In this document: in pieces, positions 55,181 through 55,749 of the stretch | How positions within the stretch are numbered: the stretch's first letter is position 1 | How the letters are laid out: every line of letters begins with the position of its first letter | DNA from: a virus | Lineage: Duplodnaviria; Caudoviricetes | Virus record (IMG/VR): IMGVR_UViG_3300010392_001176 | Coordinates: 1,815-65,814 of that record | Reading direction: 5' to 3' (one strand) | DNA length: 64,000 bases | Program-made: the position numbers and the translations under genes | Notes under the pieces: generated by a model | Told to the model about the DNA's origin: nothing | Seen by the model: only the letters and a program-made list of their open reading frames with translations | Databases searched by the model: none

Positions 55181-55749
55181 CATCGCAATCCATTTCAGAA
55201 CAAAACATGACAATACTCGGCGGCAAATCAAGGCATATCCCGCCCGTCCAGAACGGCTCTCGTCGCCAAAACAAAACAGTACAGGGCATTACTCGACGAC
55301 ACAACAAACCAACCCGCCCCGCATCATTTCACTACGCAGCATAACATTACTCGTCGTCATGCCATCACATAGCATTTCGGTACAGATCACATCTCGACGG
55401 CACTACACTCCGCACCAGCACATCACTCTTCTCGTCGCCACAACACTTCATCGCAGTTCTCGAAGTCAAAACGAAACGGCCCACCACACCCCACTCCGCG
55501 AAGGCAACTCACCCCGATCCGTAACATCACACCTCACCTCATTCCGCGAAGTCAGCTCATCACGCGACACCTCTACGCGGCACACACCACTTCTCGACGG
55601 CAGGGCAACCCACCACACACCATATCATCCCACCACTCGAAGGCAAAACGTTCCACCACGCGGCACGGCAAATCTCGAAGTCAGGACGCTTCACAACTAT
55701 CCACGGCATGTCTCGTCGCCAGCTCCGAACAGCTCACGGCACTCCATTT
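55181..55749 (-). ncRNA. Pentamer-coded guide array (14 blocks, 93 NNN-YG units, 13 octamer delimiters) paired with the RAMP gene
   Basis: Plus strand: all 93 pentamers begin with C (72 CA, 15 CG, 3 CC, 3 CT); delimiters C(T/G)CGN(A/C)GN; abuts RAMP stop codon. Expression as RNA is inferred. Confidence 0.85.

Follow-up and report, generated by a model that had tools for sequence, protein, structure and literature searches.

The 64-kb stretch of viral DNA analysed here (the window; part of a single 65.8-kb virus record, GC content 46.6%) carries a gene for a small Cas7-like RAMP protein and, on the same strand and directly downstream of it, an array of guide-like blocks made of pentanucleotide units. 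This locus is a VIPR system, a known kind of system, with a non-canonical pentamer, NN-(G)-Y-G. One block of the array, block 9 (positions 55505-55544, minus strand), is probably a VIPR guide directed to the ribosome-binding site (RBS) and start codon of another phage's gene, one with a strong Shine-Dalgarno (SD) sequence of the Firmicute type.

VIPR was first described in 2026, in preprints. In its published form, phage-borne Vipr RAMPs are combined with vrRNAs made of YNNGG pentamers, in which the NN bases read double-stranded DNA while one target base, usually at a codon wobble position, is skipped (five guide nucleotides for three target nucleotides), and binding silences the transcription of rival elements (10.64898/2026.04.26.720920). 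One Vipr protomer is placed on each repeat and grips its fixed bases (10.64898/2026.04.26.720927). Seven types are distinguished, and there are alternative repeats (NNNGG, YNNNG, NNNNG) as well as staggered arrays in which guides abut one another (10.64898/2026.04.26.720920); non-canonical 5-mers in print are GAC/NN, CAC/NN, WGT/NN and TGH/NN (10.64898/2026.10.21.760802). Guides aimed at a satellite's recombinase and guides to repetitive host DNA (REP-directed vrRNAs of E. coli satellites) are also on record (10.64898/2026.10.15.759431).

On the minus strand, block 9 reads as eight NNN+YG pentamers (GAAtg, AGGtg, AGGtg, TGAtg, TTAcg, GATcg, GGGtg, AGTtg). Removal of the fixed YG letters leaves the 24-mer GAAAGGAGGTGATTAGATGGGAGT, where GGAGG occupies positions 5-9 and ATG positions 17-19, with a spacing of 7 nt. 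A preliminary description of this DNA had proposed the same 24-mer and the same GGAGG-7 nt-ATG arrangement; the two agree exactly. The segment AAAGGAGGTGAT of block 9 is, we presume, the complement of a Bacillus-type 16S rRNA 3′ end. It is unlikely that composition alone produced the exact SD-like 12-mer of this block: in simulations that used the position-specific base composition of 2895 family units, such a 12-mer appeared in an eight-unit block with P = 2e-6 (4 of 2,000,000). The looser motif, GGAGG followed after 4-9 nt by ATG, is itself seldom present in 24-mers drawn at random from natural phage DNA (6e-5 to 1.4e-3).

Gene and array are associated across the family to which the locus belongs. 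A total of 49 viral and 80 metagenomic loci encoding homologues of the window protein were fetched. Among the 114 loci with at least 300 nt of DNA downstream of the homologue, 104 carry a same-strand NNNYG array starting no more than 1500 nt downstream of the gene, and in three of the other ten the array lies upstream of it. Only three loci, all in metagenome-assembled genomes, were recovered in a search of one genome each from 185,579 prokaryotic species. A search of 50,697 phage records yielded no homologue (best E about 1), and a single-protein search of metagenomes returned no close relatives.

The window protein (207 aa) belongs to no Pfam or PHROG family. Its 305 homologues are nearly all unnamed and come almost entirely from metagenomes or viral contigs; none of the 120 listed has a Pfam domain. 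A C-terminal G-loop, HGYGGER..G.GRY, is invariant across the family. With an AlphaFold2 model of the protein (pLDDT 85.9, pTM 0.75), the best Foldseek matches are Cas7/Csm3 proteins of type VII and type III CRISPR complexes (E 2e-7 to 1e-5), and comparison with viral stand-alone RAMPs gives E 2e-14 and 1e-12. PADLOC reports a weak Csm4 match on the G-loop (E 9e-4). The model suggests that the protein is a small stand-alone RAMP with an RRM core, a glycine-rich loop and a thumb. Like other VIPR loci, this one is virus-encoded and has neither cas families (none among the 23 window open reading frames (ORFs) scanned with Pfam) nor CRISPR repeats. The array does not have the canonical GGY/NN repeat; since variant units are in print, a different unit does not exclude membership of VIPR in the wider sense. 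Alignment of the window family profile with that of the characterised SUSP1 Vipr family by hhalign gave E 0.0048 and a probability of 7.3%, a marginal score, over 129 collinear columns that include helix 1 and the G-loop; against the single SUSP1 sequence E was 0.12. In this weak alignment the SUSP1 G-loop residues D177, W178 and R179, reported to hold G1, G2 and Y3, stand opposite G-E-R of the window family. Judged from the sequences, G-E-R in place of D-W-R would fit a different fixed motif.

The use made of the variable bases was analysed in 423 unique blocks (2895 units) from 82 sources, comprising the family loci and the window. Family units have the composition NN-(G 48%)-(T 85% / C 12%)-(G 99%): Y occupies position 4 in 97% of units and G position 5 in 99%. 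Of the variable bases, the first two have a nearly even and strand-symmetric composition, and the third is G-biased. Dependence was found between first and second bases (chi2 65.7), second and third bases (142.4), and the third base and the first base of the next unit (43.6), each value being reached by none of 500 within-block shuffles; the second base and the next first base are not dependent (chi2 4.3). At the three adjacent-base steps TA is depleted (0.76, 0.54, 0.71), AA/TT is in excess, and the correlation with the adjacent-base bias of phage DNA is 0.56, 0.82 and 0.64. Under Markov models trained on the family loci, joined triplets in their true order score above shuffled ones (z 5.6-7.0; 7.0 once adjacent duplicate units are removed), compared with z 0.8-3.2 when only the first two bases of each unit are joined. 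That the joined triplets of successive units behave like contiguous natural DNA is supported by these data. Stop-free frames are in excess, most of all when the third base faces the wobble position of an antisense codon (z 4.0), followed by the frame in which it is the first base of a sense-strand codon (z 3.6). Blocks do not preferentially begin with an ATG unit (14 of 423, ratio 1.04), and a comparison of similar blocks between arrays for drifting positions yielded too few true homologous pairs. In the locus of a related soil phage (L027, 5027-5135), two adjacent 10-unit guides decode in phase to ATG-led open reading frames.

Joining the triplets after dropping the two fixed letters was the rule put forward in the preliminary description, and it is upheld by the dinucleotide bias at the junctions, by the order test (z 5.6-7.0) and by the decoding of block 10. 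We advance only tentatively the fuller possibility that this branch fixes nothing but Y-G and reads all three bases, in other words that a gapped guide (three bases read, two hidden) faces uninterrupted DNA in a zero-skip code, with G preferred at every third base.

Block 10 provides a second readable guide. The reverse complement of its joined triplets encodes L-H-D-L-R-H-T, which we take to be a conserved tyrosine-recombinase motif, and the third base of its units falls opposite the codon wobble. With third bases freed, the block matched 105 IMG/VR stretches, of which 67 encode LH[DE]LRHTF and 69 fall within open frames of 100 aa or more; the context of many reads RLHDLRHTFAS. The best full match (22/24) is in the gene of an integrase on an 88-kb phage contig, where it encodes the LRLHDLRHTFISL motif. 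Block 10 establishes a three-nucleotide target period and codon phasing for the family, directly so for one guide, and it fits the reported anti-recombinase strategy. Neither of the two guides has a self-target, the best sites in their own phage genome matching at 17/24 (block 9) and 16/24 (block 10).

Natural counterparts of block 9 were sought with pattern scans of IMG/VR and of a set of prokaryotic genomes (genome_contigs); these scans are exact-match and miss targets mismatched at one specified base. With third bases freed, block 9 matched 37 IMG/VR stretches. Ten of these qualify under a strict test as SD + ATG starts of ORFs no shorter than 60 aa, and five more are gene starts with a weaker SD. 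When the full 24-mer is considered, six IMG/VR contigs match at 23/24 (GGC for GGG) and a seventh at 22/24, and in each of these contigs the site coincides with the SD and start of an ORF of 98-100 aa that begins Met-Ala-Val. In one of them (L052) this ORF is directly upstream of a 400-aa ORF; related Clostridium symbiosum phages have a major capsid protein annotated in the corresponding region. The best-matching contigs are podophage-like, of about 13-17 kb and 38% GC, and 72-77% related to two human-faecal phage records. Thus, the gene-start matches extend beyond the SD core, the lack of which the preliminary description had named as grounds for giving up its interpretation. The gene beginning Met-Gly-Val that it had expected was not found, nor was an exact copy of the 24-mer. 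Its proposal of a guide against the start region of a specific gene holds insofar as block 9 is a guide in a VIPR-type array beside a RAMP gene; the part concerning a specific gene is not supported, since unrelated gene starts match at 20-22/24.

A number of results weigh against the interpretation of block 9 as an RBS guide. The candidate target phages have 38% GC, compared with 46.6% for the window phage. Neither the exact 24-mer nor a Met-Gly-Val gene turned up, the best IMG/VR match being 23/24; the 23-base pattern of block 9 (one position freed) has no match in 596 Gb of prokaryotic genomes from 185,579 species (genome_contigs), and the unchanged 40-mer is in no other IMG/VR contig. IMG/VR likewise holds no match to block 4 (10 units) or to a 10-unit block of L027, both with third bases freed, or to the exact joined 21-mer of block 5. 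The matches of unrelated gene starts at 20-22/24 indicate that a near-match is partly a property of the consensus SD, and with several such starts matching, no specific target gene can be named. Across the 423 family blocks, SD + ATG decodings are not enriched: GGAGG followed after 4-9 nt by ATG occurs in two, where 0.4 are expected from unit shuffles (24 of 300 reach two) and 1.1 from third-base shuffles (95 of 300 reach two). RBS-like guides are therefore not a general feature of the family. Guides converging on one rival were absent among the phages scanned: the other 13 guides stayed within shuffle ranges against four full candidate podophage contigs, the two faecal phage records and Clostridium phage CS229P1, and against the 88-kb integrase-bearing contig only the seeding guide rose above shuffles. 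When long family blocks, 119 at first and then 226, were compared locally with the fetched loci, nothing exceeded shuffles except for two seeded matches. Sequence homology of the protein to the characterised SUSP1 Vipr family is only marginal. Finally, the third base is G in 48% and C in 20% of family units, an asymmetry that mere copying from targets on either strand would not be expected to produce, and all three mismatches to the best natural sites (one for block 9, both of those for block 10) fall where the guide has G as third base, so that AGGAGG could arise from AGNAGN.

The last two points would also be explained if block 9 were a guide of which only the first two bases per unit are read. 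Its real target would then be of the form GAnAGnAGnTGnTTnGAnGGnAG, the SD + ATG look being due to unread, G-biased third bases; we regard this as unlikely, yet it has several points in its favour. Under the published type II rule two bases are read and the third base of the target, in most cases the wobble, is passed over (10.64898/2026.04.26.720920), and block 10 indeed has its third base opposite a wobble position. In block 9 third-base positions underlie two of the four Gs of GGAGG plus the T of ATG, and 22 of the 37 pattern matches are not gene starts. On the other side, third bases depend on both of their neighbours as in natural DNA (the chi2 values of 142.4 and 43.6 above), the 12-mer would have to be accepted at P = 2e-6 per block under composition alone, and even with third bases freed 10-15 of the 37 matches are gene starts, far above the share of such sites in phage genomes.

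The spread of near-matches raises a further alternative, whereby block 9 is a broad or decoy guide, its consensus SD-start directing Vipr to many rival or host gene starts. At least seven unrelated gene families match it at their starts (20-23/24), and guides to repetitive host DNA have been described (10.64898/2026.10.15.759431). We nevertheless consider such a role improbable: the phage's own genome, in which block 9 matches best at 17/24, has just one GGAGG + 4-9 nt + ATG site, and the lack of any match to the 23-base pattern in the genomes of 185,579 species means that full-length matches are rare.

Least probable of all is that the array contains no guides and is a protein-binding or structural repeat, as RNA or DNA, or a sponge for the 16S 3′ end, the decodings being coincidental. 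It is true that neither a promoter nor a terminator stands out (two promoter-like sites against 1.9 in shuffles; one terminator-like site against 1.6) and that the SD-like 12-mer is, we presume, complementary to the 16S 3′ end. But 104 of 114 loci have kept the gene-array pair, Y and G are conserved at 97% and 99% beside hypervariable positions, the variable bases have the statistics of natural DNA, and 67 of the 105 matches to the block 10 guide are in recombinase genes. Moreover, only about 13 of the 24 decoded bases of block 9 would, on our assumption about the 16S sequence, pair with its 3′ end; on this count 16S rRNA or rDNA was also rejected as the target of block 9. Two other readings of the array were discarded. 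A protein-coding function was rejected because the 5-nt period clashes with codons, and a TRAP-like triplet-binding RNA was rejected on the observation that the array keeps a dinucleotide fixed and varies the triplet.

If the published type II system is taken as the model, transcription of the array would accompany or follow that of vipr, and the transcript would be cleaved in or close to the NCKNCGAG separators. Each pentamer would be bound by a single Vipr protomer that grips the fixed Y-G, probably with a preference for G in the base before it, and the variable bases would be offered to double-stranded DNA at five guide nucleotides for three target nucleotides; binding would silence transcription of a competing mobile element. 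Block 9 itself was most likely copied from the gene start of another phage, at which it is then directed. Being of the same sense as the mRNA, this guide would pair with the template strand of the DNA and not with the message. Taken together with the published mechanism, this would imply DNA binding and not antisense pairing.

The array (Table 1) spans 569 nt and begins 1 nt past the vipr stop codon. Blocks are numbered from low coordinates, block 14 being the first transcribed and block 1 the last. Base autocorrelation in the array is 0.377 at lag 5 and 0.20-0.30 at lags 1-4. Twelve runs of at least four NNNYG units lie within it on the minus strand, as compared to just 26 short runs (4-6 units), both strands together, in the rest of the 64-kb window. 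Rfam found no family in 52000-59000, CRISPR repeat families included, and TRF found no direct repeats of about 23-50 nt in the array region. The joined triplets of block 8 give a G-rich run followed by T6, as in the 3′ half of intrinsic terminators; here, too, a decoded block resembles a non-coding feature of natural DNA. A 23-nt direct repeat (GTGGGCCAGGAATGGGCCA..., 96% identical) is present at 54923-54945 and 55155-55177, flanking about 210 nt of non-coding DNA; one copy lies a few bases past the last guide block and the other immediately upstream of the small minus-strand ORF that comes next. The repeat may mark the edge of a module or serve in processing or recombination.

Table 1. Positions of the vipr-like gene, the guide array and its parts in the window.
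Feature	Positions	Strand	Description
vipr-like gene	55751..56374	-	predicted 207-aa stand-alone Cas7-like RAMP (P0001); ORF and translation
Guide (vrRNA) array	55181..55749	-	14 blocks of 4-10 NNNYG pentamers each; thirteen 8-nt NCKNCGAG separators
Guide block 14	55720..55749	-	6 pentamers, one GG in place of YG
Guide block 13	55682..55711	-	6 pentamers
Guide block 12	55644..55673	-	6 pentamers
Guide block 11	55601..55635	-	7 pentamers
Guide block 10	55553..55592	-	8 pentamers
Separator ACTTCGCG, 5′ of block 9	55545..55552	-	
Guide block 9	55505..55544	-	8 pentamers; triplets GAA AGG AGG TGA TTA GAT GGG AGT
Separator CCTTCGCG, 3′ of block 9	55497..55504	-	
Guide block 8	55467..55496	-	6 pentamers
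Guide block 7	55439..55458	-	4 pentamers
Guide block 6	55401..55430	-	6 pentamers, the first with AG in place of YG
Guide block 5	55358..55392	-	7 pentamers
Guide block 4	55300..55349	-	10 pentamers
Guide block 3	55267..55291	-	5 pentamers
Guide block 2	55224..55258	-	7 pentamers, two with GG in place of YG
Guide block 1	55181..55215	-	7 pentamers

Among the phage genes of the window are those for RecT, YqaJ, a tyrosine integrase and a relative of terminases, the nearest cultured relatives of the last being 35-37% identical and from Bacillus and Clostridioides phages. Apart from vipr and ORFs overlapping vipr or the array, none of the ORFs in 51000-60000 has a homologue in the family loci that would mark it as an accessory (vap) gene. 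Of the 44 loci of other clades with a gap of 250-900 nt between vipr and array, 31 (L012, L013, L016, L018, L019 and L025-L028 among them) encode a conserved ORF of about 90-110 aa in that gap; it is a candidate accessory, vap-like protein of those clades and is absent from the window. Between integrase and vipr the window has a cupin or cysteine-dioxygenase-like ORF (56470-56862, minus strand; Pfam Cupin_2 at threshold, PHROG 7851 at E 7.6e-19), which is not kept with vipr in other loci. Elsewhere there are two giant ORFs, 12456-23555 (plus strand, 3699 aa) and 45181-51273 (plus strand, 2030 aa), the second without a Pfam family, and a UDP-N-acetylglucosamine 2-epimerase gene (26778-27767, plus strand; Pfam E 1.9e-74) amid ORFs that have no Pfam family.

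The VIPR targeting rule has so far been tested, according to the available text of the preprints, for the GGY/NN type only, and no rule or natural target for the large NNN-YG branch (305 homologues) was found in that text. What is added here is a statistical argument, made from guides alone, that the three variable bases represent contiguous target sequence; a guide spelling a motif from the catalytic region of tyrosine recombinases, which fits the silencing of a rival's recombinase; and a guide resembling a gene start. A zero-skip code, if true, would give 50% more specificity per protein subunit and would bring non-coding DNA, ribosome-binding sites for instance, within reach of guides, block 9 then being the first case from nature. 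Such a denser code, the second for VIPR, would also be of interest for very small programmable DNA binders.

Among known systems, the Cas7/Csm3 filaments of Class 1 CRISPR supply the best structural matches of the 207-aa protein. In these backbones, too, there is one protomer per fixed guide step, and periodic bases are held out of pairing. The 5′ tag of crRNA is 8 nt, the same length as the separators of the window. The window differs from Class 1 CRISPR in its step of 5 nt instead of 6 and in being phage-encoded, and from CRISPR-Cas loci in general in having neither repeats of 23-50 nt nor uniform spacers, its separators measuring 8 nt and its blocks 20-50 nt. TIGR-Tas shares with the window a compact, phage-associated array of short guides adjoining one small protein; unlike the 5-nt period and RAMP fold found here, it has an 18-nt period and a Nop-domain protein (10.64898/2026.10.21.760802).

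The closest parallels are with VIPR itself. The type II system of SUSP1 and a P. fulva prophage is likewise phage-borne, with a single Cas7-like RAMP of about 20 kDa and adjoining non-coding tandem pentamers of fixed and hypervariable positions; in the SUSP1 locus (L282) the gene is at 28474-29061 (minus strand) with flanking YNNGG runs. Both systems have five guide nucleotides per three target nucleotides and codon-phased targets, recombinase genes of rival elements among them. The window array departs from SUSP1 in fixing Y-G after a 48%-G base instead of G-G-Y, with three variable positions instead of two; in its guides of 4-10 units with 8-nt separators, those of SUSP1 having 9-16 units followed by a structured tail of about 40 nt; and in the absence of a conserved accessory (vap) gene, the similarity of the proteins being marginal. 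Non-canonical VIPR repeats in print resemble it in that they form pentamer arrays next to proteins of Vipr-like fold and have fixed bases that are fewer or differ from the canonical ones; the published TGH/NN and NNNNG are both compatible with the NNNTG units of the window, and arrays of abutting guides have been described as well. For the three-variable-base forms, the available text of 10.64898/2026.04.26.720920 and 10.64898/2026.10.21.760802 yielded no targeting rule or natural target. The window family stands apart from these forms in that its triplets behave as contiguous DNA and two of its guides have readable targets.

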